Below are positions 14,631 through 57,380 of a stretch of 64,000 nucleotides of DNA, in pieces. Origin of the DNA: Minisyncoccota bacterium (lineage in GTDB: Bacteria > Patescibacteriota > Minisyncoccia > Phycocordibacterales > Phycocordibacteraceae). The notes beneath the pieces were generated by a model, which did not search any database, was not told where the DNA came from, and was given only the letters and a program-made list of their open reading frames with translations. Numbering within the stretch: the stretch's first letter is position 1; each line of letters opens with the position of its first letter. The DNA lies in assembly GCA_036405415.1 (NCBI GenBank), contig DASWXP010000002.1:492450-556449 (forward strand). The letters run 5' to 3'. The position numbers were made by a program, and so were the translations under genes.

Positions 14631-16304
14631 ATGGAAGAGATGCTCTCGCTAGCGATACGGACCGCGCTCGATGAGATGGGCGCGGAGAACGTGCCGTTCT
14701 CGGTCGAATGGCCGGCAGACCTCGCGCACGGGGACTTCGCGACGAACGCTGCGCTCGCCGCCGCAAAGCCTCTTGGCAGGTCTCCGCGCGAGATTGCAGA
14801 TGAGCTCGCGGGAAAGCTTCGCGATGCGCTCGGCGAGCAGGCCGCTTCGGTCGAGGTAGCAGGTCCCGGATTCGTCAACGTCACGCTCGCGCGCGATGCG
14901 ATAGCAAGCGCGATACGGAGTGTGCCAGCTGAAGGGTGGGGCAGCGGAAGCGCTCGCTCGGAAGAGCGGATCGCATTCGAGTATTCCTGTCCGAATCCGT
15001 TCAAGGAGATGCACGTAGGACACGTGATGAGCGCCGTTATCGGCGAAGCTGCATCTCGCATCATCGAGAATCAGGGCGCTCGAGTGCTCCGAGACACGTA
15101 TGGAGGCGACGTAGGTCCGCATGTCGCGAAGGCGCTCTGGGCCTTGAGGCGCAAAGGGAACGAGAACCCGGCAACGCCGAAGGAGATCGGCGAAGCCTAC
15201 GCGCAGGGAAGCCACGCATACGAGGAGAGTGAGGAAGCGAAGGCTGAGATCGATGCGCTCAACGTGTCTCTGTACGAGGCGCTCGCAAAGGAAGAAGGAG
15301 AGCGCAGTGACGAGGACCGGGCGCTTCTTGAGCTTTGGCGCCATGGACGCGATGCGTCGCTAGCTGCGCACGGCGTTATCTGGGACGCACTCGGTACCCA
15401 CTTTGATTACATTCTGCACGAGAGCGAAACCACGCCCATTGGAATCGCGGCAGTGCGCGAGGCGCTTGAGAAAGGGGTGTTCGTAGAAAGCCAAGGAGCG
15501 GTTATCTACAACGGAGAGAAGAAGGGGCTCCACACGCTCGTGTTCCTCACGTCGCGCGGTACGCCGACCTACGAAGCGAAGGATATCGGCCTCGCGTTCC
15601 TGAAGGAGGAGCGCATGGGTCCGCTCGATCGGGTGTACATCACTACTGCTGCCGAGCAGAAGGGGCACTTCGAGGTCTTCCTTGCCGCGCTTTCGGACAT
15701 CGCTCCTGAGCTTGCGGCGAAGACGAAGCATGTGCCCCATGGGTTCCTCCGTCTCACTACCGGGAAGATGTCCTCTCGCGAAGGGAACGTTATCACCGGT
15801 GCTGGCCTCATCAGCGAGATAATCGATACGGCACAGGAGAAGAACGAGGATCCGCTCGTAGCGAAGGCGGTGGCTATCGGTGCGATCAAGTACATGATCC
15901 TGCGCCAGGCCGCGGGCGGCGACATCATCTTTGATCCCGAGAAGTCCCTGTCGCTTGATGGAGACTCGGGTCCGTATCTGCAGTACGCGCTCGTGCGTGC
16001 GCGGTCTGTGCTCGCGCAGGCGCAGAAGCCAGAGGATATCGAGGCGCCCCTAGAGCCGTATGCGCTCGAGCGGCTCATCATCCGGTTCCCGGAGGTGGCG
16101 CGTCGCGCAGAAGCGGAGCTCGCGCCGCACAAGGTCGCGCAGTACCTCACGCAGCTTGCTGGGGAATGGAATTCGTTCTATGCGAACAACCGCATCATCG
16201 GCGGCGAGCACGAGGGCTACAAGCTCCTCCTTGCGCGCGCGTTCGCGCTCACCATGGAGCGAGGCCTCAACCTTCTCGGCATTCCGGTTCCGGAGCGGAT
16301 GTAG
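14631..16304 (+). CDS. argS: arginine--tRNA ligase
   Basis: Class I HIGH motif as PNPFKEMHVGHVMSAV, and the DALR anticodon-binding C-terminus. 557 aa. Confidence 0.9.
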   Translation: MEEMLSLAIRTALDEMGAENVPFSVEWPADLAHGDFATNAALAAAKPLGRSPREIADELAGKLRDALGEQAASVEVAGPGFVNVTLARDAIASAIRSVPAEGWGSGSARSEERIAFEYSCPNPFKEMHVGHVMSAVIGEAASRIIENQGARVLRDTYGGDVGPHVAKALWALRRKGNENPATPKEIGEAYAQGSHAYEESEEAKAEIDALNVSLYEALAKEEGERSDEDRALLELWRHGRDASLAAHGVIWDALGTHFDYILHESETTPIGIAAVREALEKGVFVESQGAVIYNGEKKGLHTLVFLTSRGTPTYEAKDIGLAFLKEERMGPLDRVYITTAAEQKGHFEVFLAALSDIAPELAAKTKHVPHGFLRLTTGKMSSREGNVITGAGLISEIIDTAQEKNEDPLVAKAVAIGAIKYMILRQAAGGDIIFDPEKSLSLDGDSGPYLQYALVRARSVLAQAQKPEDIEAPLEPYALERLIIRFPEVARRAEAELAPHKVAQYLTQLAGEWNSFYANNRIIGGEHEGYKLLLARAFALTMERGLNLLGIPVPERM

Positions 16305-16389
16305 ATAAGACGCTTGCGGGTTTCTATATTCGGGGGTAGGGTAGCGCTTGTCTCCATGGGGGAGGCATTGAAAATCCAAGGAGGACGCT

Positions 16390-16626
16390 TTGTCCAAAAG
16401 AATCAAGGTCAGCAGGAAACGCATGGATGTTCTGGCGCAGCTGGCGCGGGAACGCCGTATGAAGATCGATGAGATCTTCTGGGCCTGCGCCGCGTGGCTT
16501 CGGGCCCGGGGGGAACGCGTGAAGGACTTCACGATCAGGAACTGGCTGAGTCGCTACAAGCAGACCCGCCGCATCCACCCCAAGGTGGCCCACTTCGCCC
16601 AGCATCTCCAGGCCGCGTCCGCCTGA
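16390..16626 (+). CDS. small basic protein, possible DNA-binding (hypothetical)
   Basis: 78 aa, TTG start 7 nt after a perfect AAGGAGG Shine-Dalgarno (rare in this window), Lys/Arg-rich, followed by a terminator hairpin. Confidence 0.35.
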   Translation: MSKRIKVSRKRMDVLAQLARERRMKIDEIFWACAAWLRARGERVKDFTIRNWLSRYKQTRRIHPKVAHFAQHLQAASA

Positions 16627-16644
16627 GGTCCTGAACCTGGTTCA

Positions 16645-16680
16645 ACGGTCCGCGCTTGCGCGGGCCGTTTTCCTTTTCAT
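16645..16680 (+). terminator. intrinsic terminator
   Basis: acggtccgcgc-ttg-cgcgggccgt then tttcctttt. Confidence 0.5.
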
Positions 16681-16707
16681 ATATGAAGCGCTAGGATAAG
16701 GAAATCT

Positions 16708-19700
16708 ATGGCTGATACAGAGAAATCAGAAGTCGCGAAGCGCGAGGAAGCGATACTCGCGTTCTGGAAGGAGAAAGGGGTCTTCGAGAAGACTCTTGGC
16801 AAAGACGCACCCAAGGGCGAGTTTGTGTTCTACGACGGCCCGCCATTTGCGACCGGTCTTCCGCATTCCGGTTCGCTCCTCTCTTCGGTCTCGAAGGATC
16901 TCATTCCGCGCTACAAGACCATGCGTGGGTACCGTGTCCGACGCCGATGGGGATGGGACACGCACGGTCTTCCTATCGAGTCACTTGTAGAGAAGAAGCT
17001 CGGCTTGAAGAACAAGAAAGAGATTCTTGAGATAGGCATCGAGAAATTCAATGAGACTGCACGCTCCATGGTGCTTGAATACGTGCATGACTGGAAGCGT
17101 TACGTTGAGCGCGTCGGTCGGTTCGTGGATTTCGATAATTCATATAAGACGATGGACAACACGTTCATCGAGTCGGTGTGGTGGGGACTCAAGGAGATCC
17201 ACAAGAAGGGAAGGCTGTATGAGGGCCGCAAGGTGCTTATGTACTGTCCGCACTGCGAGACGCCCCTTGCCAAGGCGGAGATCGCTATGGACAATACGTA
17301 CAAGGATGTAACCGAGGAAACCGCCACGGTTGCTTTCAGGGTTGTGGACTCAAGGGGTAGCGGACTCCCCGAAAACGCCTATCTTCTTGCCTGGACCACG
17401 ACGCCATGGACGCTTCCTGGGAACGTCGGGCTTGCGGTGGGAAGCGATATCGCCTATGGCGTGTATGAGAAGGACGGGAAGTATCTCGTTGCAGCGAAAG
17501 AGCGAGCGGAAGCACTTGGCCTTTCGAATGCGACACAGGAACTTACAGGCTCCGTACTTGTGGGCGTTACCTACGAGCCTCTCTACGAGATACCGAAGGT
17601 CGCTCGCCACGCCGGCAAGAAGTGGGAGGTGCTCTCAGCTGACTTCGTTACGACTACGGACGGTACCGGTATTGTGCACACGGCCGTAATCTACGGAGAG
17701 GACGATTACCAGCTCGGCGTGAAGGAGGGTCTTCCAATGGTGCCGATCCTCAATCCGAACGCTACGTATAACGATGACGCGCCTTTATTCCTGCGCGGGA
17801 AATACATCAAGAAGGCAGAGAGCGAGATCAAGGAGGACCTCGAGTCGCGCGGGCTTCTCTTTGCACGCGAGATGCATACACACTCATATCCGCACTGCTA
17901 TCGCTGCGGCACTGCGCTCATCTATAACGCGGTCTCGTCCTGGTTCATCGACATCCAGGCGGTGAAAGAGCGGATGCTCGCGGAGAACGAGAAGATCACG
18001 TGGGTGCCGGAGCACCTGAAGCACGGGCGCTTCAGGCATATCGTTGAGAGTGCCCCGGACTGGACTATCTCGCGTAACCGCTTTTGGGCGAGCCCGCTTC
18101 CTATATGGAAGGGCGCAGACGGCTCAGTGCACGTCATCGGCTCTCTTGCGGAACTCAAGGAGCGGACGAAGAAGAGCGGCAACCGCTACCTCGCAATGCG
18201 CCACGGAGAGACGGAGAACACGCTTATCTCGCGTTTGAGTAGCGACCCGACGAAGAATCCGCTTACCGAGAAGGGAAGGGAGCGCGTACGCGCCCGTGCA
18301 CAGGAGCTTAAAACGAATCCACCAACACGCATCTTCGCGTCCCCGGTTCTGCGTACTCGAGAAAGCGCGGAGATTATATGTGAAGAGCTTGGTCTCCCTA
18401 AGGACAAGCTGGTGTTCGACGAGCGCCTTCGCGAACTCACGTTCGGAGAATTCGAAGAGCGGTACCTTGAGGAATTCCTCGCCTGGAGGAATGCGCACGC
18501 CTATGACGAGGCGCCCGAGGGCGGCGAGAGTGGTCTTGAGGCTAAGCGCCGCTTTGGCGAATTCCTGTACGAGCTTGAGCGTACGTACGCGAACGAGATC
18601 ATTCTCATAGTGACGCACGGTATCGGTCTCGAATCGTTCACGGCGCTTGCGGATGGGCTTGAGAACAGGGAAGCGAAGGAGCTGATCGAATCGAGCTCGT
18701 TCTCTCCGGCGGAGGTCATCGAAGTTCCGTTTGTCCCGCTCCCGCACAACCGTGATTTCACGCTCGATTACCACCTCCCATACATTGATCGGGTGTCCCT
18801 CGTTGACGAAGCGGGTGAGCCGCTTACGCGAATTCCTGAGGTGGTGGATTGTTGGGTCGAGTCTGGCTCAATGCCGTTCGCGGAATACCACTATCCGTTT
18901 GAGAACAAGGAGGCGTTCGAGAAGCGCACTCCAGGAGATTTCATCTCGGAGTACATCGGCCAGACGCGCGCCTGGTTCTACTACATGCACGCGATTAGCC
19001 TCGAGCTTTTCGATCATCTCGCGTTTAGGAACGTGATCACTACCGGAAACGTACTTGCCGCTGATGGCGCGAAGCTCTCGAAGAGCAAGAACAACTACAC
19101 CGATCCGTACCTTCTCTTCGAGAAGTACGGCGCAGATGCGTTCCGCTACACGCTCATGTCGAGCGTGGTGATGCAGGCTGAAGACCTTACGTTCAGGGAC
19201 GACGACGTGAAGGATGCGCATGCACGTGTCGTAAACATGTTGCGGAATATCTACGGATTCTTTGAGATCTATAAGGACGAGCTTGCCCCGGATGCTCGCC
19301 CTTCTGCAGAGCATCCACTTGATCGCTGGATTCAGGCACGGCTTGATGCGCTTGTAACGGATGTCACTGATTCCTTTGATCGGTATGACGTACCGCGTGG
19401 CGTGCGTGCGTATCGTGATTTCATAGATGATCTGTCTAACTGGTACGTACGTCGCTCTCGCGATCGTGCGAAAGGCGAAGACGAGGGTGATAAGCAGCGG
19501 ATGCTTGCGATGCTGCGCTCGGTGCTCGCTACCTTCTCAAAGACAATTGCGCCCGTGATGCCGTTCATTGCTGAGGAGATCTATCAGGGTGTCCGTAGGG
19601 AATCGGATCCAGAGAGCGTCCACCTTGCATCTTGGCCTTCGGTTGAAAAGGGCATATTCGATGCCCTTAGTGGAAAGGCAAAGAAGGACGCGATGCTTCT

Positions 19701-20085
19701 TGAAGAAATGAAGCGCACCCGTACGCTTGCGTCCGAAGCACTCCGCTTGCGCCAGAAAGCGGACCTAAAGGTGCGTCAGCCGCTTGCAAGCCTTTCGATT
19801 CCTGGAACGCTTCCTATTGAGCTCGCAAAGATCCTTTCTGAGGAGCTCAACGTGAAGGAGATTCGCATGAACGCTGAACAGATGGCGCTCGACACCGAGC
19901 TCACCCCTGAACTCATCGCGGAAGGAGACGAACGCGCGTTCCAGCGCGCGGTCGCAGAAGCACGCAAGGCAGAAGGCTTCTCGCCGAAGGATCACGCTAC
20001 CGTCACGAAGCGGGAGGACGGCGCGCATGTCGCGGAGCTGTCTACGGGCCCGGTACGCTTCTCGCTCTCGCGCGATGCGTCATAA
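16708..20085 (+). CDS. ileS: isoleucine--tRNA ligase (eukaryote-like/type 2) with an in-frame histidine-phosphatase (PGAM-like) domain insertion
   Basis: PPFATGLPHSGSLL (HYGH position), CP1 editing motif WTTTPWTLPGN, KMSKS as KLSKS. About 190 aa inserted between PLPIW and VVDCWVESGSMPF carry RHGE...ASPVLRTRESA...IVTHG histidine-phosphatase signatures. Confidence 0.9.
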   Translation: MADTEKSEVAKREEAILAFWKEKGVFEKTLGKDAPKGEFVFYDGPPFATGLPHSGSLLSSVSKDLIPRYKTMRGYRVRRRWGWDTHGLPIESLVEKKLGLKNKKEILEIGIEKFNETARSMVLEYVHDWKRYVERVGRFVDFDNSYKTMDNTFIESVWWGLKEIHKKGRLYEGRKVLMYCPHCETPLAKAEIAMDNTYKDVTEETATVAFRVVDSRGSGLPENAYLLAWTTTPWTLPGNVGLAVGSDIAYGVYEKDGKYLVAAKERAEALGLSNATQELTGSVLVGVTYEPLYEIPKVARHAGKKWEVLSADFVTTTDGTGIVHTAVIYGEDDYQLGVKEGLPMVPILNPNATYNDDAPLFLRGKYIKKAESEIKEDLESRGLLFAREMHTHSYPHCYRCGTALIYNAVSSWFIDIQAVKERMLAENEKITWVPEHLKHGRFRHIVESAPDWTISRNRFWASPLPIWKGADGSVHVIGSLAELKERTKKSGNRYLAMRHGETENTLISRLSSDPTKNPLTEKGRERVRARAQELKTNPPTRIFASPVLRTRESAEIICEELGLPKDKLVFDERLRELTFGEFEERYLEEFLAWRNAHAYDEAPEGGESGLEAKRRFGEFLYELERTYANEIILIVTHGIGLESFTALADGLENREAKELIESSSFSPAEVIEVPFVPLPHNRDFTLDYHLPYIDRVSLVDEAGEPLTRIPEVVDCWVESGSMPFAEYHYPFENKEAFEKRTPGDFISEYIGQTRAWFYYMHAISLELFDHLAFRNVITTGNVLAADGAKLSKSKNNYTDPYLLFEKYGADAFRYTLMSSVVMQAEDLTFRDDDVKDAHARVVNMLRNIYGFFEIYKDELAPDARPSAEHPLDRWIQARLDALVTDVTDSFDRYDVPRGVRAYRDFIDDLSNWYVRRSRDRAKGEDEGDKQRMLAMLRSVLATFSKTIAPVMPFIAEEIYQGVRRESDPESVHLASWPSVEKGIFDALSGKAKKDAMLLEEMKRTRTLASEALRLRQKADLKVRQPLASLSIPGTLPIELAKILSEELNVKEIRMNAEQMALDTELTPELIAEGDERAFQRAVAEARKAEGFSPKDHATVTKREDGAHVAELSTGPVRFSLSRDAS

Positions 20086-20626
20086 GTACGCGACGCAGGC
20101 CATCGTGCTCGCGCGTACGCCGCTCAAGGAATCGGCAACGCTGCTCACTTTGCTTACGGAGGAGTTCGGGGTGCTGCGAGCACGCGCTGAAGGGCTCAGG
20201 AAACCCGGGGCGAAGCTCGCACACGCGCTTCAGACGCTGGACCAGTGCGACGTCACCCTTGTGCGCGGCAAGGAAGGCTGGCGGCTCTCAGGAGCTCACC
20301 TCGAAGAGCGCTGGTTCGGGAAGCTCGATCGTAGAGGACGCGAGCGAGCGGGACGGGTGAACGGACTATTGCTCCGGCTCGTACACGGAGAGACCAACGA
20401 CACCTTCCTGTTCTCGATATTCCTCCGCTTCCTTGAGGCGCTCTCTGGGAGGGAAGAGGAGGCGCAGGATGCAGCCGAGTGCTTTGCGGCGCTTCGCATG
20501 CTCGCGTCGTTGGGTCTTGATGCAGGTGCTATTCCGGAGGATAACGAGTACGCGCCGCTTGCCCCAGACGAGCGTCGCGAGCTCGTGACGCGCATCAACC
20601 GCGGAATCGCGGCCTCGGGGCTCTAA
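20075..20626 (+). CDS. recO: DNA repair protein RecO-like
   Basis: N-terminal OB-fold pattern (TQAIVLARTPLKESATLLTLLTEEFGVLRARAEG). Start overlaps the ileS stop by 11 nt. Shorter than E. coli RecO. Confidence 0.5.
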   Translation: MRHKYATQAIVLARTPLKESATLLTLLTEEFGVLRARAEGLRKPGAKLAHALQTLDQCDVTLVRGKEGWRLSGAHLEERWFGKLDRRGRERAGRVNGLLLRLVHGETNDTFLFSIFLRFLEALSGREEEAQDAAECFAALRMLASLGLDAGAIPEDNEYAPLAPDERRELVTRINRGIAASGL

Positions 20627-20630
20627 GCAC

Positions 20631-22502
20631 TTGCTATACTGGGGAACGATGCCTCCGAATGGTCCTGACGATACGAGTTCGCTCGAGCGGTTGCGCCAGC
20701 GGTTATATGCGCCCGAGGCGCCTGAGGGTTTCCCTGCGCCCGCGCTACGTCCTGAAGCGGCCCAGCCTGCCCAGACAGAAGGATGGACGCCGCCTCCGCT
20801 TCCTGTGTCGCCGAAGAAGCCGAAGGTCTCGTGGCCGGCGATATTCCTCGGGATAGCGGGAATCTTTTTCCTTATCGCGCTTGCCGTAGCAGCGTACTTC
20901 CTCGTCTTCGGCGGTCGTGCCGTATCCACCGAGCGCATCGCGCTTACGGTGGACGGGCAGACGGCGGTAGGCAGCGGGGACGTGGCAACGCTCCTCATTT
21001 CCGTAGAGAATCGCAACCCGGTCACGATTCTCAATACCTCGATCCGTGCAGAGTTCCCTGAGACCGCACGCGCTCCGGAAGATAACGCGCGTCCGTTCGT
21101 GCATTACGAGGACACCATGGGCGATGTTCCGTCAGGAGAGACGGCTACCCGCTCTGTGCGCGTCGTGCTGTACGGGGGAGAGAACGAGCGGGTGGTGGTG
21201 CCGGTCCGGTTCGAGTATCGCGTCGAAGGATCGAACGCCACGTATGTGAAGGAGACCAAGCACGAGATCCTCATAAGCTCCTCGCCGCTCTCCATCCGTG
21301 CCGAGGCGGTATCCGAAGCGTCGGTGGGCCAGCCCATAACGTTCGCGGTTACGGTTCGCTCGAACGCGAAAGAACCACTTGAGAACGTCGCGGTGTACGG
21401 ACAGTACCCGTTCGGCTTCACTCCGGCCCGCGGCCAGGCGGCCCTTATCCCGGTAGGAACGCTCGCGCCCGGGGAAGAGCGCACCGTAACGGTCACGGGT
21501 ACCCTTTCAGGGGAAGACAATGAGGAGCGAGTGCTCCGGTTCTCTGCGGGAACGCGCACCAGCCCTGACGCAAACCTGCTCGCGGTCACGTACGCGACCG
21601 CGATAACACCGGTCACGCTCGCAAAGCCGTTCCTCGCCACAAGCCTCTCGTTCAACCGCGACACGAGCGCCACTCCGGTGCTCGAAGCCGGTGCACCGGT
21701 GCAGGGGATCATCTCGTGGGTGAATACGACCGCGGCGGGCATTCTCGACGCGCAGGTGACGCTGCGCTTCGAGGGGAATGCGCTAGATACGAATTCAATC
21801 GCGGGGTACGGAGGCTTCTACCGCTCCTCTGACCGCACCATCATCTACTCCCGAGAGACCGAGATGGGTCTTGCCCGACTCGATCCAGGGGCTACCGGCA
21901 GTGGTTCGTTCAGCTTCAAGACCAAGAACGCAGAAGCGCTCGTAGGAACGCGCAGCCCTTCAGTAGACATCACGGTATCAGTTTCAGGCAGGCGCGTGGG
22001 CGAAGGGAACGTTCCGGAGACCATTAACGCGTCCCTAACCCGCACGCTCAAGGTCGGGACGAGCCTCGCGCTCTCTGGCCGCGTAAGTCATCGCGGAGGC
22101 CCGCTTCCGCCGATGGCGGACCAGGAAAGCCGCTACGCGATCGTGCTCGCGCTATCGAACACCGTGAACACGGTCGCGGACGCAACCGTTACCGGAACCT
22201 TGCCGTCCTACGTGCGCTTCGTAAGCAGCACGGATTCTTCGATCACGTACAACGAGACGAGCCGTACGGTGACCTGGAAGGCAGGAGAGGTGGCGTCCGG
22301 TGCCGGGTTCTCAGCGGGTGCGCGCCAGGGAACCTTTGAGGTTGCCGTGTTGCCAAGCGCTTCGCAGCGGGGTACAAGTCCTGTACTCATGTCCTCGCTC
22401 GAGGTTACAGGTGTCGACCGCTATACGCAGGGCCAGATCCAAGGTGCAGGCACCGCGATCACCACCGACACCTCCGGGCAGGGGACAGGAACCGTGCGTT
22501 AA
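20631..22502 (+). CDS. hypothetical large membrane-anchored extracytoplasmic protein
   Basis: 623 aa with a Pro-rich cytoplasmic N-terminus, one TM helix (IFLGIAGIFFLIALAVAAYFLVF), then a ~520-aa beta-rich Thr/Ser/Val-rich domain with no recognisable motif. Confidence 0.45.
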   Translation: MLYWGTMPPNGPDDTSSLERLRQRLYAPEAPEGFPAPALRPEAAQPAQTEGWTPPPLPVSPKKPKVSWPAIFLGIAGIFFLIALAVAAYFLVFGGRAVSTERIALTVDGQTAVGSGDVATLLISVENRNPVTILNTSIRAEFPETARAPEDNARPFVHYEDTMGDVPSGETATRSVRVVLYGGENERVVVPVRFEYRVEGSNATYVKETKHEILISSSPLSIRAEAVSEASVGQPITFAVTVRSNAKEPLENVAVYGQYPFGFTPARGQAALIPVGTLAPGEERTVTVTGTLSGEDNEERVLRFSAGTRTSPDANLLAVTYATAITPVTLAKPFLATSLSFNRDTSATPVLEAGAPVQGIISWVNTTAAGILDAQVTLRFEGNALDTNSIAGYGGFYRSSDRTIIYSRETEMGLARLDPGATGSGSFSFKTKNAEALVGTRSPSVDITVSVSGRRVGEGNVPETINASLTRTLKVGTSLALSGRVSHRGGPLPPMADQESRYAIVLALSNTVNTVADATVTGTLPSYVRFVSSTDSSITYNETSRTVTWKAGEVASGAGFSAGARQGTFEVAVLPSASQRGTSPVLMSSLEVTGVDRYTQGQIQGAGTAITTDTSGQGTGTVR

Positions 22503-22514
22503 CATTTTCGTACT

Positions 22515-23894
22515 ATGACCGTATCGCTGGAACAGATCGTATCGCTCGCCAAGAGGCGCGGGTTCATATTCCCGGGCTCCGAGATCTATGGCGGCCTTGC
22601 CGGCACCTTCGACTACGGCCCTTTGGGCGTCGCGCTCAAGAACAACGTGAAGGCGCTCTGGTGGAAGCGCTTCGTCGAGGACCGTGACGACATGTACGGC
22701 GTGGACGCGTCGCTCATCATGCCGGCGCGCGTATGGGAGGCGTCCGGGCACACCGAGACGTTCAACGACCCGCTCGTGTCTGACGCAAAGACCGGAGAGC
22801 GGTTCCGTCTTGATCATGTGCTCGAAGCAGCCGGTATCGATCCGGCTGGCATGACGCTCGAGGACATGTGGAGCGCGCTTCAGGAAGCGGGCCTTACGAC
22901 TCCTTCCGGAAACGCGTACGAGCAGCCGACGAAGTTCAACCTCTTGTTCCCGGTAACCATGGGAGCGTCCCAAGGGTCCGCGACGCTCGCATACCTGCGC
23001 GGCGAGACGGCGCAAGGCATGTTCGTGAACTTCAAGAACGTCATCGACGCGTACCATCCGAAGCTTCCGTTCGGCATGGGGCAGATAGGGAAGGCGTTCC
23101 GCAACGAGATCGCGCCGCGCGAGTTCGTGTTCCGCCTGCGCGAGCTCGAGCAGCTGGAGGTCGAGTATTTCGTGCGCCCAACGGCATGGAAAGAGTCGTT
23201 TGAGGCATGGCGGCTTGAGATGCAGGCATTCGCGAAGGACCTCGGGCTTCCTATGGACAAGCTGCATGAGAAGGAGATCGGCGACGAGGATCGCGCGCAC
23301 TACAGCGAGCGCACCATCGACTTCGAGTATGAGTTCCCGACCGGGACGAAGGAACTATGGGGTCTCGCGTACCGCACCGACTACGACCTCTCTCGTCACG
23401 CTGAGTATTCAGGCGTCTCGCTCACGTATCTTGATGAGGAGGCGAAGGAGAAGATCGTGCCGCACGTGATCGAGCCATCGCTTGGCCTTGAGCGTACGGT
23501 GCTCGCGGTGCTCGCGTCCGCGTATGACGAGGACGAGCTCGGGGAAGAGAAGCGTGTGGTGCTCCGGCTTTCCCCGAAGGTCGCGCCCGTGAAGGCGATG
23601 GTGTCGCCGCTCCTTAAGAACAAGCCGGAACTGGTCGCGAAAGCGAAGGAGGTGCGTGCCGCGCTCAAGAAGGCGCATCCGGCAATCGCGTGGGACGACA
23701 ACGGTAATATCGGTAAGCGCTATCGCCGCCAGGACGAGATCGGTACGCCGTTCTGCGTTACGGTAGATTTCGATACGCTCGGGGAGACGCCAGAGCTTCT
23801 GGGAACCGTGACGCTCCGGCACCGAGATACCGGCGAACAGGAGCGCCTTACGGTCGAGGAAGTCATAGAGCGCATCCGAGAGTCGCTCGCCTAA
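22515..23894 (+). CDS. glyQS: glycine--tRNA ligase (dimeric alpha2, GlyQS type)
   Basis: N-terminus LAKRRGFIFPGSEIYGGLAGTFDYGPLG and class II motifs (FRNEIAPREF). 459 aa. Confidence 0.9.
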   Translation: MTVSLEQIVSLAKRRGFIFPGSEIYGGLAGTFDYGPLGVALKNNVKALWWKRFVEDRDDMYGVDASLIMPARVWEASGHTETFNDPLVSDAKTGERFRLDHVLEAAGIDPAGMTLEDMWSALQEAGLTTPSGNAYEQPTKFNLLFPVTMGASQGSATLAYLRGETAQGMFVNFKNVIDAYHPKLPFGMGQIGKAFRNEIAPREFVFRLRELEQLEVEYFVRPTAWKESFEAWRLEMQAFAKDLGLPMDKLHEKEIGDEDRAHYSERTIDFEYEFPTGTKELWGLAYRTDYDLSRHAEYSGVSLTYLDEEAKEKIVPHVIEPSLGLERTVLAVLASAYDEDELGEEKRVVLRLSPKVAPVKAMVSPLLKNKPELVAKAKEVRAALKKAHPAIAWDDNGNIGKRYRRQDEIGTPFCVTVDFDTLGETPELLGTVTLRHRDTGEQERLTVEEVIERIRESLA

Positions 23895-23924
23895 AAAAGC
23901 GGCAGCCCGGCTGCCGCTTTTCGG
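23894..23924 (+). terminator. intrinsic terminator after glyQS
   Basis: aaaagcggcagcc-cgg-ctgccgctttt. Confidence 0.6.
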
Positions 23925-23945
23925 TTTCGTGGTACCATTTTCCTC

Positions 23946-25004
23946 ATGCAAAAGAACGTCTCCATCACCATCACCCCGGGCACGATCATTATGGCGCTCC
24001 TCATAGGAGCGGCAGCCTACGCGCTCTGGCTGCTTCGGGACATCGCGCTTCTCGTGCTCACGGCGATCGTTATCGCGTCGGCGATCGAGCCGGGCGTGAC
24101 CTTCTTCACGCGCCGCCGCATCCACCGCATCGTTGCGGTTACGGTCATGTACCTCGTGGTCTTCGGAGCGCTCTTCGGGCTCGTGTACGCGTTCGTCCCT
24201 CCTATCCTTGAGGAGGCCCAGAGCTTCCTCTCGAGCGCGCCGCAGTATCTCGATACGCTTAACCTGCCGACATCGCTCACGGGCGTGGCGGAGACGGCGC
24301 GGACTGCGACCGCGGGGCAATCGCAGTCCATCTTCGATACGATCTTCGCGTTCCAGTCTGCGTTCGCGGATACTTCAGGAGGCGTGGTGCGCGTGGTGTC
24401 GACGTTCTTCGGCGGCATCTTCTCCCTGTTCCTCGTGATCGTGCTCTCGTTCTACTTCGCCGTGCAATCAACCGGCGTCGAGGACTTTATCCGCCTCCTT
24501 TCTCCGGCGAAGCACGAGCAGTACGCGGTAGGTCTCTGGCTGCGCGCCCAGCGCAAGATAGGGCAGTGGATGCAGGGACAGCTCCTGCTGTCGCTTATCT
24601 CAGGAACCATCACGTATCTCGGTCTCCTCATCCTCGGGGTACCGTACGCGCTTCTCCTTGCGGTTATCGCAGCTGTCATGAACCTCGTGCCGGTGTTCGG
24701 CTCCCTTATCGCCGGCGTGTTCGCTACCGTCGTCGCGTTCGGGGCAGGGGGCGTCACGCTCGCGCTCATCGTGGCGGGCCTCTTCCTCATCATCAACCAG
24801 TTCGAAGGAAACCTGCTGTATCCGCTCGTCGTGAACAAGGTGGTGGGCATCCCGCCGCTTCTCGTCATCCTCGCGCTTCTCGTAGGCGGCAGCCTTGCCG
24901 GGTTCCTCGGTGTGCTCCTCTCGATCCCGCTTGCTGCAGCATTCCGCGAGTTCCTGTCTGATATCGAGCGCAACAAGCGCCTACGGGCTGCGCACGAGGC
25001 GTAA
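23946..25004 (+). CDS. AI-2E family transporter (PerM-like permease)
   Basis: 352 aa, about 8 TM helices, and a conserved AI-2E C-terminal core (NLLYPLVVNKVVGIPPLLVILALLVGGSLAGFLGVLLSIP). Confidence 0.7.
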   Translation: MQKNVSITITPGTIIMALLIGAAAYALWLLRDIALLVLTAIVIASAIEPGVTFFTRRRIHRIVAVTVMYLVVFGALFGLVYAFVPPILEEAQSFLSSAPQYLDTLNLPTSLTGVAETARTATAGQSQSIFDTIFAFQSAFADTSGGVVRVVSTFFGGIFSLFLVIVLSFYFAVQSTGVEDFIRLLSPAKHEQYAVGLWLRAQRKIGQWMQGQLLLSLISGTITYLGLLILGVPYALLLAVIAAVMNLVPVFGSLIAGVFATVVAFGAGGVTLALIVAGLFLIINQFEGNLLYPLVVNKVVGIPPLLVILALLVGGSLAGFLGVLLSIPLAAAFREFLSDIERNKRLRAAHEA

Positions 25005-25010
25005 CCGCCT

Positions 25011-26453
25011 ATGGCTCGCTACCTCACGACGACGCTTCCATACGTGAATGCGGACCCGCACATCGGGTTTGCGCTTGAGATCGTGCAGGCCGATGCGCTT
25101 GCGCGTTCGTGGCGCCTTCAGGGTGAGGAGGTGTTCTTCTCGACCGGTACCGACGAGCACGGACAGAAGATCTTCCAGGCCGCAGAGAAAGCCGGGAAGG
25201 GCGTTCAGGAATACGTGGATCATTACGCCAAGGAATTCGAGAAGCTCAAAGGAGCGCTTTCCATCACGAATGACGCGTTCATCCGCACTACGGATCTCTC
25301 TCATATCCGCGCCGCGCAGGAGATGTGGCGTCGCTGCGCCGCGTCTGGCGATATCTATAAGAAGAGCTACACCGGCAGGTACTGCGTGGGCTGTGAGTCT
25401 TTCAAGGTTGAGAAGGATCTTTCTGAAGACGGACACTGCCTTATCCATACGAACCTGGTAGCGGAAGAAATAACGGAAGAGAATTACTTCTTCCGTTTCT
25501 CGAAATATCAGGACCAGCTCCTTTCATATCTTTCGAAAGAAGACACGATTAAGCCGGACTGGCGTCGCCAGGAAGCAATCAACTTCGTCTCAGGAGGGCT
25601 TGAGGATTTCAGCATCTCGCGCGAGAAGGCGCGTCTCTCGTGGGGCATTCCGGTGCCGGACGACGAGAGCCAGGTTATGTATGTCTGGTTTGATGCGCTC
25701 ACCAACTACATCTCGACGCTCGGCTGGCCTGAGGAAGGCGGGAAATTCAAGGCGTTCTGGGAAGACGGGGCCGTGCTTCAGGTGGCAGGGAAGGACCAGG
25801 TGCGCTTCCAGTCCCTTATGTGGCAGGCGATGCTCATGTCCGCGAAGGTGAAGAATACGGACACCGTCTTCTATCACGGCTTCATCAACTCGGGCGGGCA
25901 GAAGATGTCAAAGTCCTTGGGGAACGTGATTAGCCCGAATGAGCTCGTAGAGAAGTACGGCACTGACGCTACGCGCTACATGCTTCTGCGCCACGTGCAC
26001 CCGAGCGAGGACTCAGACGTCACATGGGAACGCATGGATGAGTGGTATACCGCGAACCTCGTGAACGGTCTCGGGAACCTTGTGGCGCGCGTGATGAAGC
26101 TTGCAGGAGACAATCTCGAGGGACCGGTTACCCTCGAGTCTTCTGACACCACTATCGACGAAGCGTTCTCGCACGCACTCGATGCGTTCCGCTTCAATGA
26201 CGCTATGGATTACGTGTTCGCGATTATCGCCGAGTGCGATGCGTACATGACTGCGAAGGAGCCTTTTAGGAAAGTGAAGAGCGAGGACCGGGGAATACAG
26301 GAAGAGGGCAGGGAGGATCTTCGGTTCCTCGTACGCAAACTCGCGCTCATCGCTACCCATCTCGCGCCCCTCATGCCACAAACCGCGGATACGGTCCTTG
26401 CGGCGGTCCAGACGAACAAGAAGCCGGAGAACCTGTTCCCGCGCCTTTCCTAA
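25011..26453 (+). CDS. metG: methionine--tRNA ligase (short form, no C-terminal tRNA-binding domain)
   Basis: LPYVNADPHIGFALE (HIGH position), KMSKS present as QKMSKSLGNV. 480 aa. Confidence 0.9.
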   Translation: MARYLTTTLPYVNADPHIGFALEIVQADALARSWRLQGEEVFFSTGTDEHGQKIFQAAEKAGKGVQEYVDHYAKEFEKLKGALSITNDAFIRTTDLSHIRAAQEMWRRCAASGDIYKKSYTGRYCVGCESFKVEKDLSEDGHCLIHTNLVAEEITEENYFFRFSKYQDQLLSYLSKEDTIKPDWRRQEAINFVSGGLEDFSISREKARLSWGIPVPDDESQVMYVWFDALTNYISTLGWPEEGGKFKAFWEDGAVLQVAGKDQVRFQSLMWQAMLMSAKVKNTDTVFYHGFINSGGQKMSKSLGNVISPNELVEKYGTDATRYMLLRHVHPSEDSDVTWERMDEWYTANLVNGLGNLVARVMKLAGDNLEGPVTLESSDTTIDEAFSHALDAFRFNDAMDYVFAIIAECDAYMTAKEPFRKVKSEDRGIQEEGREDLRFLVRKLALIATHLAPLMPQTADTVLAAVQTNKKPENLFPRLS

Positions 26454-40603: not shown

Positions 40604-41024
40604 TTGGAAGGGACACGGGCTCGTTGACAGACGAATATGCAAAATAGGTAATCAACACCGCAAGGTGTGTAGTTTTCTACATGCCCTGCGGATTGAATAT
40701 TGCAGAATCACAAACAAAAGAAATCGTTAGAAAGTGGTATTCAGGTTTCCGCACAGGAGACATGAAGGGTGCACGGTGGATGCCTAGGCTTGCGACAGCG
40801 ATGAAGGACGCGACTAATCAGCGAAATGCTTCGGGGAGACGATTTGTAGTCTTTGATCCGGAGGTGTCCGAATGGGGAAACCCGGCCAGCAATGGTCACC
40901 CTCCTTTTAAGGAGTGGAGCTCACCCAGGGAAGTGAAACATCTCAGTACCTGGAGGAATAGAAAACAACAACGAGTTGTGTTCCGTCTGCTTGATGCTTC
41001 GAGTAGATGGAACGCGACTCTCGT

Positions 41025-41056
<32 letters not shown>

Positions 41057-41292
41057 GAGCCCAAACCCAATACTTCGGTGTTGGGGGTTGTAGGGTGAGA
41101 GCGCCGTATTTATACGGCACAAGTTACAAAGGTCTTATATAGCAGAAGAAGCTGGAAAGCTTCGCCCCAGAGGGTAATGGCCCCGTATGCGAAATATAAA
41201 ACTCTTGTGTGCTCTCATTCCTGAGTAGGTCGAGACACGAATAGCTCGGCTGAATCTGCCAGAACTAACTGGTAAGGCTAAATATGTCGCAG

Positions 41293-41338
<46 letters not shown>

Positions 41339-42777
41339 GAGAGGGGAGTGAAATAGAACTGAAACCGTGTACTTACAAAGGGTTAGGGTGGGCTCCGGTC
41401 CATCCTAGCGTGCCTATTGAAGAATGAGCCTGCGAGTGTATGTATGTTGCTTCGGCTAAATCCGTAACGGGATGGAGCCACAGGGAAACCGAGTGTTAAT
41501 AGCGCGCCCGTATCATACATACGACCCGAAGCCAGGTGAGCTTGCCATGAGCAGGATGAAGTTTGGAGAAATCCAAATGGAGGTCCGAACCCGTAGATCG
41601 TACAACGTCTTGGGATGACTTGTGGTAAGGAGTGAAAAGCTAATCGAACCTGGTAATAGCTGGTTCTCTCCGAAATAGCTTTTGGGCTAGCGTCGCGTGC
41701 TCCCTCCGGGGGTAGAGCACTGGAAGGGACAAATAGGGGGAAACCTCGTTGTTCCTATCAAACTCCGAATACCGGACGGCATGAGCGCGGCAGTTAGACG
41801 GTGGGGGCGAAGCTCCACACGTCGAAGGGGGAAGAGCCCTTGATCGCCAGTTAAGGTCCCAAAATTTACGCTAAGTACAACTTAAGGAAGTGAGGATTCT
41901 TCGACAATGAGGATGTTGGCTTAGAAGCAGCCACCATTTAAAGAAAGCGTAACAGCTCACTCATCGAGAGTCCTTGCGCCGAAGATGATCGGGGTTAAGC
42001 GTAATACCGAAACTGCGGGTGTGCATCGTATTCGTACGGTGCACGCGGTAGGAGAGCGTTCCGTTCTGCTGTGAAGCTAAAGGGGTGACCCATAGTGGAG
42101 CGTACGGAAGTGAGAATGCAGGCACAAGTAACCACAATGCGGGTGAGAACCCCGCACGTCGAAAGAACAAGGTTTCCTCAGCTATGGTGATCAACTGAGG
42201 GTTAGTCGGGCCTTAGGGGATGGCGAAAGCCGCACCTGATGGACACAGGGTTAATATTCCCTGACCGATCATATGTGCGATGGAGTGACGGATTGCTGTA
42301 TCTATGGCCCATTATTGGATTTGGGTTGGTGCCGTGAGGGTGTGTGGTAGGAAAATCCGCCACGCGTTATCCCGAGCGGAAAAACAATGTCCTTCTTCGG
42401 AGGGGCAGAGCATAGAGAGCGCGGTTCCAAGAAAAACTTCTAAGCTTCAGCATATGACGACCGTACCGCAAACCGACACAGGTGTTCAGGTCGAGTAGAC
42501 TAAGACGAACGAGTGAGAGGTCCTCAAGGAACTCGGCAAAAAAGCGGCCGTAAGTTAGCGATAAGGCCTGCCTCCCGCAAGGGAGGCCGCAGCGAAAGAT
42601 TTTCTGCCAACTGTTTACCAAAAACACAGCTCCCTGCGAACTCGTAAGAGGATGTATAGGGGGTGACGCCTGACCAATGCCGGAAGGTCAAGCAGGGGAG
42701 GTACATTGTCCTCGGATGATGTGCTGGACCCTATAAGCCCCGGTGAATGTCGGCGATAACTATAATCGTCCTAAGGT

Positions 42778-42973
42778 TCTGCATCTGAGCAATCGGATGC
42801 AGAACGGATTGGGGCGGTTATAGGAGACCGTAAACAGCCCGAGAGGGTAAACGTCAAAATAGCTACCTCTTCAGACCGAAAGGTCTGATGGATCCACGAC
42901 TCAAATGAGAGGCCATACGTCGTGCCCCTACTTCGGTAGGGTGAAGATATGGTCCTGCTGTAAGGAATAGTAG
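42778..42973 (+). mobile_element. group-I-like intron in 23S at the L1931 site (no ORF)
   Basis: 196-nt insertion between CCUAAGGU and AGCGUAAUUCCUUGUC, i.e. after U1931 by alignment to E. coli. 5' exon ends in U and the insert ends in G, as in group I introns. Confidence 0.5.
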
Positions 42974-43630
42974 AGCGTAATTCCTTGTCTGGTAAGTTCA
43001 GACGTGCACGAATGGCGTAATGAGTGGAAAACTGTCTCGAGGACTTGCTCGGTGAAAATGCAATACCGGTGAAGATGCCGGTTACCTGTAGTTAGACGAA
43101 AAGACCCCAGGAGCTTTACTACAGCTTGGTGTTGGGGTTGTGTGTCGTATGCGTAGCATAGGTGGGAGACTTTGAAGCGAGGGTTTTGGCTCTCGTGGAG
43201 TCGCCAGTGAAATACCACTCTTACGATGTGCAACTTCTAACCCGCATGAGAACCATGCGGGGACCGCGCCTGGCGGGTAGTTTTGGTGGGGCGCTATCCT
43301 CCTAAAAAGTAACGGAGGAGTCTATTAAGGTTGGCTAGGCGCGAATGGAAACCGTGCCGATAGTGTAATGGCACAAGCCAGCTTAACTGTAAGGGGTACA
43401 TCCCGCACAGATGCGAAAGCAGAGCATAGTGAACCGATGGTTCGCCTTAGATGCGGCCAGAGATTAACGGATAAAAGTTACCCTGGGGATAACAGGCTAG
43501 TTCCGCCCAAGCGTCCATAGCGACGGCGGAGTTCGGCACCTCGATGTCGGCTCACCTTAGCGCGGGGCTGGAGAAGGTCCCAAGCGTTTGGCTGTTCGCC
43601 AATTAAAAAGGTACGCGAGCTGGGTTCAAA

Positions 43631-43925
43631 CCGTGAGGGTTTATCGAGTCTTCGGATTCGATGCTCTCACTGTTTGAATCCCTTCGAGCGAGATTATCGC
43701 AAAACAACACATCAGAAAGTCTTTTCGTCTTGAAACAAGCATAGGAACAACCATGACACGGCGGTTCTGCATAGGGATATGCAGAAGCAAACTGACTAAT
43801 ATCGGAAGAACCCCACGTTGGGCGATTCCGAGGGAAGCGAAAGCGCCCGTAGAGACTGAACGTCAGTCACGAAGAACTCGTGAAGCTACAGTCCGATCCT
43901 TCCGGCAACGGAAGTCAACGAAATG
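43631..43925 (+). mobile_element. group-I-like intron in 23S near the L2593 site (no ORF)
   Basis: About 295-nt insertion interrupting GAGCUGGGUU(C/U)A(A/G)A...CGUGAGACAGGUUGGUC. Boundaries uncertain by a few nt. No LAGLIDADG ORF. Confidence 0.45.
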
Positions 43926-44299
43926 CGTGAGACAGGTTGGTCTCCTATCTACTACAGGCGTTGATTCTTGAGGAGACTTGCCCCTAGTACGAGAGGACCG
44001 GGGTGAACTGACCTCTGGTCTGCCTGCTGTCACGCCAGTGGCATCGCAGGGTAGCTATGTCGGGAATTGATAACTGCTGAAAGCATATAAGCGGGAAGCA
44101 AACTCCAAGATTAGGAATCGTTATGAGGCTCCTAGAAGATTACTAGGTTGATAGGCATTAGGTGGAAGCGCAGTAATGCGTTGAGCCGAGATGTACTAAT
44201 ATGCCCAGACTTCTGTGCGGAACTCTGTATGGCACTTCTAACGAAGTGATCTGCAATACCTTTTTGCATATTCGTCCGTCCGCGAGGACGGAACGCGCG

Positions 44300-44415
44300 C
44301 AGGATGCTGGTGATGTATCGGAAGGGCCACACCCGTTCTCATTCCGAACACGGCAGTTAAGCCTTCCAGAACCGATGGTACTCGAAAGGGGAGAGTAGGT
44401 GGTCGCCAGCATCGT
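44300..44415 (+). rRNA. rrf: 5S ribosomal RNA
   Basis: Helix I gaugcugg/ccagcauc, loop C CCGAAC, and conserved GUACUCGAAAGGGGAGAGUAGG segment. About 116 nt, 85 nt downstream of the 23S. Confidence 0.8.
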
Positions 44416-55266: not shown

Positions 55267-55379
55267 AGCCCTACTGCCTCCTTGTGGAGGCGGGGTTTGT
55301 TTTCGCTCTTCGAAAACTGAATAGTGAACATGCAAAAAATTGGTAAGAACATGAGTTTTCTTGTGTTCCGCCTATTCTT

Positions 55380-56835
55380 AATGAGAGTTTGATCCTAGCT
55401 CAGGATGAATGCTGGCTGTATGGATAAGGCATGCAAGTCGAACGGACCGCAAGGTCAGTGGCAGACGAGGTAGTAACACGTAGGTACGTACTCCCAAGTC
55501 CGGCATAGCTCGTCGAAAGACGGGGTAATTCCGGATGGTCCCGCAAGGGTAAAGATTTATCGCTTGGGAAGCGGCCTGCGTAGTATCAGCTAGTTGGTAG
55601 GGTAACGGCCTACCAAGGCTACGACGCTTAGGGGAGCTGAGAGGCTGACCCCCACCGATGGGACTGAGACACGGCCCATACTCCTACGGGAGGCCGCAGT
55701 CGAGAATCTTCCGCAATGGACGAAAGTCTGACGGAGCGATACAGCGTGATGGACGAAGTGCTTCGGTACGTAAACATCTTTTATGTGGGACGAAATTATT
55801 GACGGTACCACATGAATAAGGGGCTCCTAACTCTGTGCCAGCAGGAGCGGTAATACAGAGGCCCCGAGCATTATCCGGAATCATTGGGCGTAAAGGGTGT
55901 CAAGGCGGTCATGTTAGTCGTTCGTTAAATCCGGGAGCTCAACTTCCGGCCTGCGAGCGAAACGGCATGACTTGAGGGTGGGAGAGGTGCGTGGAACTCA
56001 CGGTGTAGGGGTGAAATCCGTTGATATCGTGGGGAACACCAAAGGCGAAGGCAGCGCACTGGCCCATTCCTGACGCTCACACACGAAAGCCAGGGTAGCG
56101 AATGGGATTAGATACCCCAGTAGTCCTGGCCCTAAACGTTGCTCGCTCGCTCTACGGAGTATCGACCCTCTGTGGGGCTAAGCTAACGCGGTAAGCGAGC
56201 CGCCTGGGTAGTACGAGCGCAAGCTTAAAACTCAAAGGAATAGACGGGGACTCGCACAAGTGGTGGATCATGTGGCTTAATTCGTAGCTAAGCGAAGAAC
56301 CTTACCAGGGCTAGAAACCAAGCTGCATCCGACCCGAAAGGGACGGAGCCTTCGAGGGTGCTTGGCAGGTGATGCATGGTCGTCGTCAGTTCGTGGCTTG
56401 AGCTGTTCCCTTCAGTGGGGTAACGAACGCAACCCTCGTTGTCTGTTATATATGTCAGGCGAGACTGCCCCCTCACGGGGGAGGAAGGTGAGGATGACGC
56501 CAGATCAGCATGTCCCTTGATGCCCTGGGCTGCACACGTGATACAATGGTTGGTACAGAAGGACGCAATACCGCAAGGTGGAGCAAATCCCCAAAACCAG
56601 CCCCAGTACGGATTGAGGTCTGCAACCGACCTCATGAAGCCGGAATCACTAGTAATCCTGGGTCAGCAATACCAGGGTGAATACGTTCTCGAGTCTTGTA
56701 CTCACCGCCCGTCAACTCAAGGAAGCTGGGGGTACCCGAAATCTTGGTTTATCCAGGACTACGGTAAATTCAGTGACAGGGAGTAAGTCGTAACAAGGCA
56801 CGGCTAGCGGAAGCTGGTCGTGGAACACATCCAAT
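55380..56835 (+). rRNA. rrs: 16S ribosomal RNA (divergent, about 1.45 kb)
   Basis: AGAGUUUGAUCCUAGCUCAG 5' end, recognisable 515, 785, 1100 and 1390 regions, and 3' GUCGUAACAAGGCACGGCUAGCGGAAGCUGGUCGUGGAACACAUCC. Confidence 0.85.
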
Positions 56836-57035
56836 CGGAACGAGAAATCAGAAATGATTCTCTCCGGTCGATCGCTTCTTCGGAAGTGAGGAGATGGTGC
56901 TGCGTCCTTAAACGCGCACTCGGACGCCGGAACAACGCACCGGTGAATGTTTGGAAGTCTCAATTGAACTTCCAAGCGTTCGAATAGGCGGAACACAAGA
57001 GTGCTTCATGTGCTTACCAACTGCATGCAAGAACG

Positions 57036-57087
57036 CTGTGTGGATCGATGCTCTTCGGAGGATCGATCCACACAGCGTTTTTTGCGT
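57036..57087 (+). terminator. strong intrinsic terminator about 200 nt after the 16S 3' end
   Basis: About 18-bp stem ctgtgtggatcgatgctc-ttcg-gaggatcgatccacacag (one mismatch) followed by cgttttttg. Confidence 0.7.
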
Positions 57088-57304
57088 TATGCGGGCTGGA
57101 GCGACAAGCGCTTCACGGCCCTGCGCCAGATGCGCATCTTATTCCGGTGCCGGCGGAGCTTCAGGGAAGGAGTCGAGCTCCGGAGGGCTCGGAGGCCTTT
57201 GGTCTCACGGGTAGTTCCGCGATGTACCATCGTTACTGGCACTATACCGTGGAGGATCCCTGCCACTGGAACGATATGGGGATTTCTGCTACTATCCGCA
57301 GGTC

Positions 57305-57380
57305 GCAAGTGTAGCTCAGTTGGTAGAGCACTCGACTGATACTCGAGCGGTCGTAGGTTCGAATCCTACCACTTGCACCA
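57305..57380 (+). tRNA. tRNA-Ile (anticodon GAT), CCA encoded
   Basis: Acceptor gcaagtg/cacttgc, anticodon loop cTGATac, T-loop ttcgaat, 3' acca. Followed by the terminator at 57383-57412. Confidence 0.85.

Follow-up and report, generated by a model that had tools for sequence, protein, structure and literature searches.

The stretch of DNA analyzed here, referred to below as the window, comprises 64,000 nucleotides of contig DASWXP010000002.1 (positions 492,450 to 556,449, forward strand) from the assembly GCA_036405415.1 of a Minisyncoccota bacterium. It contains a gene, ileS, whose product is a type 2 isoleucyl-tRNA synthetase (IleRS) that holds a complete branch-1 histidine-phosphatase domain in one reading frame. 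A preliminary description of this DNA, made from the sequence alone, had proposed a single chimeric protein with an in-frame phosphatase, and the open reading frame (ORF) of 1125 amino acids (aa) is indeed uninterrupted, with no stop or frameshift along it. The parts of the gene and its main motifs are listed here (CP, connective peptide; fractions refer to close and divergent homologs, respectively).

16708..20085 (stop codon included), + strand: ileS, type 2 IleRS with nested histidine phosphatase, a single 1125-aa ORF
16708..18174, + strand: IleRS N-terminal part, aa 1-489, with the first Rossmann half, CP core, CP1 editing domain, CP2 and the first CP3 strands
16864..16875, + strand: HIGH signature, reading H-S-G-S in the sequence, with the fourth residue changed from His to Ser
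18175..18762, + strand: histidine-phosphatase insert and linkers, aa 490-685 (Pfam envelope aa 497-658, nucleotides 18196-18681)
18199..18207, + strand: RHG motif with R498 and the nucleophile H499, both invariant (121/121 and 115/115)
18340..18354, + strand: SPVLR with S545 and the phosphate-binding R549 (R549 in 121/121 and 114/115)
18418..18435, + strand: DERLRE with the putative general acid E576, aligning with LREI of PhoE (E or D in 121/121 and 113/115)
18613..18621, + strand: THG with the second catalytic histidine, H637, invariant (121/121 and 115/115)
18763..20082, + strand: IleRS C-terminal part, aa 686-1125, with the rest of CP3, the second Rossmann half, the anticodon-binding domain and the type 2 C-terminal domain
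19072-19086, + strand: KMSKS-type motif KLSKS, aa 789-793 (KxSKS invariant in homologs)

A histidine phosphatase nested in the CP3 subdomain of IleRS

When the 1125-aa protein was compared with Pfam, the class I synthetase catalytic domain appeared split into two stretches (E 4.5e-120). His_Phos_1 (PF00300) lay between them at aa 497-658 and Anticodon_1 at aa 872-1026. The phosphatase profile gave a strong match (E 2.6e-29), scoring 102.7 bits in the whole protein and 107.2 bits in the isolated insert, compared with a Pfam gathering threshold of 21.7. In the alignment with the Thermus enzyme (1ILE), query residues 9-489 correspond to residues 10-482 and query residues 686-986 to residues 488-796. 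Thus, by alignment to solved structures, ~196 residues are found in the query where T. thermophilus IleRS has ~5. Both Pfam and the 1ILE alignment bear out the location that had been proposed, between the two Rossmann halves, and place the insert among the connective peptides, ahead of the KMSKS motif. The borders first given for the insert (aa 488-678) were essentially right and have been refined here to aa 490-685.

The synthetase that hosts the insert passed the NCBIfam equivalog cut-off for ileS (TIGR00392, 775.9 vs 621.4 bits). At the sequence level it matched 1ILE (E 4e-191) and IleRS2 8C8V (E 1e-187) much better than the type 1 enzyme 8C9E (6e-92), and Foldseek gave a similar picture, with E ~1e-69 for the type 2 structures 8C9D/8C8U vs ~1e-49 for type 1. 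In both sequence and fold the best matches were type 2 IleRSs, namely those of Thermus, Priestia (IleRS2) and the fungal cytosol. The protein resembles the type 2 enzymes (1ILE, Priestia megaterium IleRS2 8C8U/8C9D and the yeast and Candida cytosolic IleRSs) in its CP1 motifs, KMSKS, anticodon-binding domain and C-terminus, but differs from them in the ~196 extra residues within CP3, in the loss of zinc cysteines and in having HSGS for HIGH. The CP1 editing motifs are WTTTPWT (229-235) and GTGIVH...YGEDD (319-333); WTTTPWT, G319, G321, H324 and D333 were invariant over 64 homologs, and the editing segment could be aligned to isolated editing-domain structures such as 1WK8. Judged by the CP1 editing motifs and KxSKS, the synthetase part looks intact. 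This is the sole ileS within the window, which also carries a tRNA-Ile(GAT) at 57305-57380. We infer that the protein is the housekeeping IleRS of this member of the Paceibacterota (Patescibacteria, or candidate phyla radiation, CPR), and that it presumably isoleucylates tRNA(Ile).

The unusual HIGH signature is a separate feature. Its fourth position is Ser in ~107 of the 121 close relatives, and among more distant fusions the forms HxGH (39), GxHH (12), HxGS (4) and HxGN (3) were found. A connection between the HSGS variant and the insert was rejected, since fusions carry all of these forms.

Alignment to type 2 IleRSs confirmed the insertion and narrowed its site to the zinc-knuckle loop of CP3. 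According to the paper on the Candida albicans IleRS structure, CP3 comprises residues 473-534; the alignment of the query with this enzyme runs to about Candida residue 499, i.e. inside CP3, and the insert is thus located within this subdomain. In the 94 divergent fusions compared, PLPIW and DxWxESG (DCWVESGSMP, aa 714-723, in the window protein) are separated by 249 aa in the median case and by no fewer than 54 aa. A CxxC just upstream of the insert and a CxxC or CxC just downstream were kept in 35 of these 94 proteins, and both zinc-knuckle cysteine pairs had been lost in 46. The phosphatase thus entered the zinc-knuckle loop, and some lineages could afterwards do without the zinc site. The window protein is without the cysteine pairs, reading KGADG (18109-18123) and DEAGE (18802-18816) instead. 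The linkers around the phosphatase contain the conserved residues G491, N492, F675, P677, P679, H680 and N681. As to other synthetases, the leucine-specific domain of bacterial LeuRS lies after, not before, the motif equivalent to DxWxxSG, and we claim no equivalence between it and the CP3 site.

In an insert-less IleRS of Saccharibacteria the same flanks are joined by ~5 residues. In the complete Saccharibacteria genome of Candidatus Minimicrobia vallesae (CP076459.1, L035:2722-5679), the IleRS, which has no insert, has been annotated as three successive ORFs of 418, 467 and 80 aa. The first interruption lies after the CP1 region and before CP2, away from the CP3 insertion site. The gene could be truly split or a pseudogene, or the sequence could contain errors.

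All the branch-1 signatures claimed at the outset align with PhoE motifs (R498, H499, R549, E576 and H637), and these five catalytic positions are occupied by RHR(E/D)H in 121/121 close and 113/115 divergent proteins. The assignment of E576 as the acid follows the alignment with PhoE; E607, in a GGES motif, was ruled out because the PhoE alignment puts the acid at E576. The insert has the alpha/beta fold of the superfamily, and the folds closest to it are those of small-molecule phosphatases of ~200 aa (PspA, GpgP, PhoE and CobC), cap included. Sequence identity to these enzymes is 20-27%, the scores are below all the equivalog cut-offs, and the insert differs from them also in its additional conserved linkers, which dock it into IleRS. 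None of the NCBIfam cut-offs for archaeal dPGM, GpmB, CobC, PspA, SixA and MutT1 was reached, with all scores far below; for example, the PspA model gave 45-50 bits vs a cut-off of 350 and TIGR03162 gave 61-66 vs 162.9. The description of the domain as phosphoglycerate-mutase-like was therefore right as regards the histidine-phosphatase family, but the likeness is greater to small-molecule phosphatases than to phosphoglycerate mutase itself.

Several more specific assignments were discarded. A true phosphoglycerate mutase was rejected on the failure of the dPGM equivalog model and on the fold comparison. Membership of the SixA type, or of protein histidine phosphatases, was discarded on the TIGR00249 score and because the compact cap-less fold was not found. 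The insert also failed the cut-offs of the PspA phosphoserine phosphatases and of the CobC alpha-ribazole phosphatases despite a similar fold. It may work like PspA or CobC while standing outside both families.

Across the 121 close homologs, the insert was the least conserved region of the protein, with a mean top-residue frequency of 0.56 vs 0.82 and 0.74 for its flanks. Over this variable background R498, H499, S545, R549, R615 and H637 were invariant. The dN/dS values, calculated against a 93.6%-identical homolog, were low throughout, being 0.033 in the N-terminal core, 0.055 in the insert and 0.057 in the C-terminal part. Invariant catalytic residues in a variable insert, together with low dN/dS, are the pattern of a working enzyme and not of a spacer.

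These data also bear on a non-catalytic role, in which the module would be either a structural brace replacing the CP3 zinc knuckle or an allosteric sensor of a phosphometabolite without turnover. The loss of the zinc-knuckle cysteines in the lineage of the window agrees with a brace, and the highly conserved linkers suggest rigid docking. Yet zinc cysteines and insert coexist in 35/94 fusions, indicating that the one does not replace the other. A catalytic set, nucleophile and general acid included, that is near-invariant on a drifting background is also unexpected for a brace, and a sensor would have no need of E576. We consider a non-catalytic module very unlikely.

Occurrence in independent assemblies and related genomes

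An identical protein has been deposited twice at NCBI (HEY0948453.1 and HEY1041972.1), both times under the title 'MAG TPA: class I tRNA ligase family protein [Candidatus Paceibacterota bacterium]', and is also present in Logan and ENA assemblies, on contigs of up to 622 kb. The best 120 full-length matches were 63-100% identical, had lengths of 1090-1168 aa and contained PF00300 in all cases. A scan with one genome per species recovered the insert with both junctions in 24 genomes, labelled Paceibacterota, Kaiserbacteria or Parcubacteria, and at most of those species loci there was one uninterrupted ORF of at least 1100 aa. An exhaustive search over 1.84 billion representatives at 50% identity gave 251 matches at E<=1e-30. 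In 114 of them the whole segment from junction through insert to junction was covered nearly end to end, at 33-54% identity. The same junction, which the preliminary description had suggested looking for in related CPR genomes, is thus found in hundreds of homologs, and hundreds of related bacteria, all uncultured, share the architecture.

The unusual architecture by itself, and the presence of 'HN' in the C-terminal linker, might raise the suspicion of an artefact, be it a chimeric assembly, a fusion of two genes by sequencing error or a spliced intein-like element. The junctions are genuine, since they recur in assemblies made independently and in hundreds of homologous proteins. Identical independent assemblies, shared junctions, purifying selection along the whole gene, GC content and GC at third codon positions (GC3) that are the same in the insert as in the rest of ileS, and the lack of a Hint domain exclude these explanations, and we give them a negligible probability.

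For the intein in particular, neither a Hint nor a homing-endonuclease domain was found in the protein with Pfam. An intein or other mobile insertion was rejected on the missing Hint domain and on the residue that follows the conserved (H/R)N, which is R, A, E, K or D and not C, S or T. Split IleRS genes, which seemed to appear among the matches to a 321-aa query (<=560 aa), were also discarded: they came from a length ceiling together with fragmentary or frameshifted calls, and the full-length query gave the intact proteins of 1090-1168 aa.

Association with IleRS and possible function

A search with the insert alone gave three matches: one fragment, one distant unlinked gene and one gene adjacent to an ileS, P0386. 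The latter, from a distant relative, codes for a free-standing histidine phosphatase of 171 aa, 41% identical to the window insert (E 3e-34), and is located as follows.

L028:6001-6516 (JGI 3300033149 Ga0366834_1014449): P0386 gene, between argS and an insert-less ileS

The order at this locus is argS, P0386 (45 bp upstream of the insert-less, zinc-knuckle-bearing ileS), ileS and recO, like that of the window. P0386 clusters among the CP3 inserts in a distance tree without bootstrap, and unlinked phosphatases are more distant. Unlike PhoE, PspA, GpgP and CobC, the subfamily of the insert is free-standing solely as this ileS-adjacent gene, if the distant unlinked match of the insert-only search is set aside. 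Other relatives carry the phosphatase elsewhere in the synthetase. P0369, on a 268-kb contig, has it in a second loop located where the anticodon-binding domain starts, and P0290 and P0336 have it at both sites (the P0336 cluster on at least 9 contigs). Further modules appear in P0344 (NCBI MCX6807234.1; one contig), with a NUDIX domain in the N-terminal half besides His_Phos, and in P0351 (one contig), with a P-loop kinase-like module directly after DCWFESGSMP. The phosphatase subfamily is therefore found almost only with IleRS, whether in CP3, in the second loop, in two copies or as an adjacent gene.

This near exclusivity, in several arrangements, suggests a functional link between the activity and IleRS, rather than a passenger present by chance. 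The reading that we favor, with moderate confidence, is that the insert is an active PhoE/PspA-like small-molecule phosphomonoesterase, with phospho-H499 as intermediate and E576 as acid, linked in function to IleRS. The architecture, its distribution, the selection on the catalytic residues and the fold class are observed; the activity, the substrate class and the coupling to aminoacylation are predicted. It would be an autonomous, catalytically competent branch-1 histidine phosphatase of ~175 aa housed within the zinc-knuckle loop of CP3, a peripheral subdomain. Following the chemistry of the superfamily, H499 would attack a phosphomonoester to give a phospho-histidine intermediate, with the phosphate held by R498, R549 and H637 and with E576 as general acid. 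The substrate is most likely a small phosphomonoester rather than a protein or an RNA end, as suggested by a fold that, cap included, matches small-molecule phosphatases. Because the subfamily is nearly confined to IleRS, and because some relatives contain nucleotide-type modules, we tentatively suggest a nucleotide-like or ribose-phosphate-like compound related to adenylation chemistry, which we hold to be possible but not probable.

Several observations weigh against a phosphatase coupled to IleRS. The nearest structural relatives use phosphoserine, glucosyl-3-phosphoglycerate and other metabolites without a known IleRS link. The IleRS of L028 is ~35-43% identical to all the fusion cores, about equally, so that it does not decide between fusion and fission, and the phosphatase gene at that locus adjoins argS as well as ileS. 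After a fission it would be expected to be sister to the fusions with inserts nearest to P0386, but the distances were about equal throughout (37-43% identity). The NUDIX and P-loop variants come from a single contig each, and the P-loop match is just under the Pfam cut-off. Finally, the second-site and duplicated copies could all derive from one ancestral fusion by internal rearrangement, and for this reason we do not take them as independent evidence. As for contacts with the tRNA acceptor stem, those reported in the papers examined are few and involve the catalytic domain of yeast IleRS, and none is with CP3.

Some of this would suit a passenger enzyme, that is, an active metabolic phosphatase without mechanistic link to isoleucylation, lodged in a permissive, structurally variable loop of a constitutive essential gene in a reduced genome. 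Such an enzyme would be kept solely for its own function, for example as a phosphoserine, sugar-phosphate or phosphoglycerate phosphatase. The folds most similar to the insert belong to metabolic phosphatases, the topology of CP3 varies among IleRSs and its zinc site is dispensable, and no CP3-tRNA contact appears in the literature on IleRS structures examined. Besides, the serine-linked one-carbon enzymes SHMT and ThyA are encoded nearby in the window, where a phosphoserine phosphatase would fit. On the other hand, the subfamily is nearly exclusive to IleRS in three configurations that include a separate adjacent gene, the insert has been kept across IleRS cores diverged to 33-43% identity, and the scores are far under the NCBIfam cut-offs for PspA, dPGM and CobC. 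We regard a mere passenger as rather unlikely, while being the alternative to be taken most seriously.

A macromolecular substrate acted upon in cis is less plausible still, and we think it improbable given the fold class. The phosphatase would remove a 2'- or 3'-phosphate from the damaged 3' end of tRNA(Ile) ahead of charging, or would act on phosphorylated IleRS or a partner protein. In IleRS the target might be a KMSKS-loop serine modified by a HipA-type toxin kinase, a modification for which there is a precedent. The superfamily does include protein phosphatases (SixA, PGAM5, Sts and the C-terminal domain of MutT1), the synthetase that carries the domain binds the tRNA 3' end, and the P-loop kinase-like and NUDIX modules of relatives recall RNA end-healing sets.

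Returning to the small-molecule phosphatase tied to IleRS, its coupling might consist in processing a nucleotide-type phosphoester that is made by adenylation or competes with it, or in a phosphometabolite gating IleRS. The CPR enzyme could then represent the first case of an aminoacyl-tRNA synthetase whose second active centre, a phosphatase, is mechanistically coupled to translation or, more broadly, a modular scaffold, in which the IleRS of reduced genomes would recruit histidine phosphatases (one or two), NUDIX and P-loop kinase modules at several permissive loops. Both ideas are speculative and we would not bet on them at present.

There are partial precedents among known systems. The ileS_w_GNAT family (NF040702), a bacterial IleRS with an added N-acetyltransferase domain, shows that an extra enzymatic domain can be accommodated, but the domain is of another type and the IleRS of another lineage; the window protein scored 307 bits vs a cut-off of 1999. 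Histidine phosphatases are likewise joined to nucleotide-handling partners in mycobacterial MutT1 (NUDIX and RHG), in the RNase H/acid phosphatase (NF005567) and in PFK-2/FBPase-2, and P0344 has both NUDIX and His_Phos on an IleRS scaffold. The CP1 editing domains of IleRS, ValRS and LeuRS are likewise hydrolytic domains nested in the connective-peptide region of class Ia synthetases. CP1, in contrast, is universal and acts on aminoacyl esters, while the insert is lineage-specific, located in CP3 and of the phosphatase superfamily.

A 2026 survey of domain insertions recognised synthetases as frequent hosts and did not mention phosphatases. The preliminary description knew of no account of this architecture, and our full-text literature searches found no paper describing an IleRS-histidine phosphatase; yet the sequences are numerous in public databases, where they have generic names. 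Aminoacyl-tRNA synthetases belong to the most conserved of all enzymes, and the rare new catalytic domains in their core have earlier revealed new chemistry of quality control or regulation. In this large group of ultra-small, uncultured bacteria, an essential enzyme, IleRS, contains a whole second enzyme that strong selection has maintained over deep divergence. This implies an unrecognised need that connects a phosphoester with the charging of isoleucine or, at the least, with the ileS gene. The annotation as class I tRNA ligase family protein misses the predicted second activity, something that could matter for metabolic reconstructions of CPR bacteria.

Gene neighbourhood and other features of the window

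The genes at both sides of ileS follow the conserved order ArgRS-IleRS-RecO.

14631..16304, + strand: argS (ArgRS), upstream neighbour
20027..20626, + strand: RecO-like gene, downstream neighbour

As listed, the RecO-like ORF begins 59 nucleotides before the ileS stop (20027-20085), indicating either a gene overlap or a later true start. At the other side, the 403-bp intergenic region upstream of ileS (16305-16707) gave no Rfam match at gathering score; in the equivalent space of the locus of a close homolog (L034), an ORF of 67 aa was called. ileS is also part of a synthetase cluster that extends over 12 kb on the same strand (14631-26453), with ArgRS, IleRS, a class II synthetase of 2b type (22515-23894) and MetRS (25011-26453), between which RecO, a DUF11 protein and an AI-2E transporter are found.

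The rRNA genes of the window are unlinked and in an unusual order. 23S and 5S come first (40751-44411) and the 16S is located ~11 kb downstream, followed by tRNA-Ile(GAT), the two spanning 55377-57380. The 23S is 3470 nucleotides long, ~540 beyond the 2925 positions of the Rfam model.

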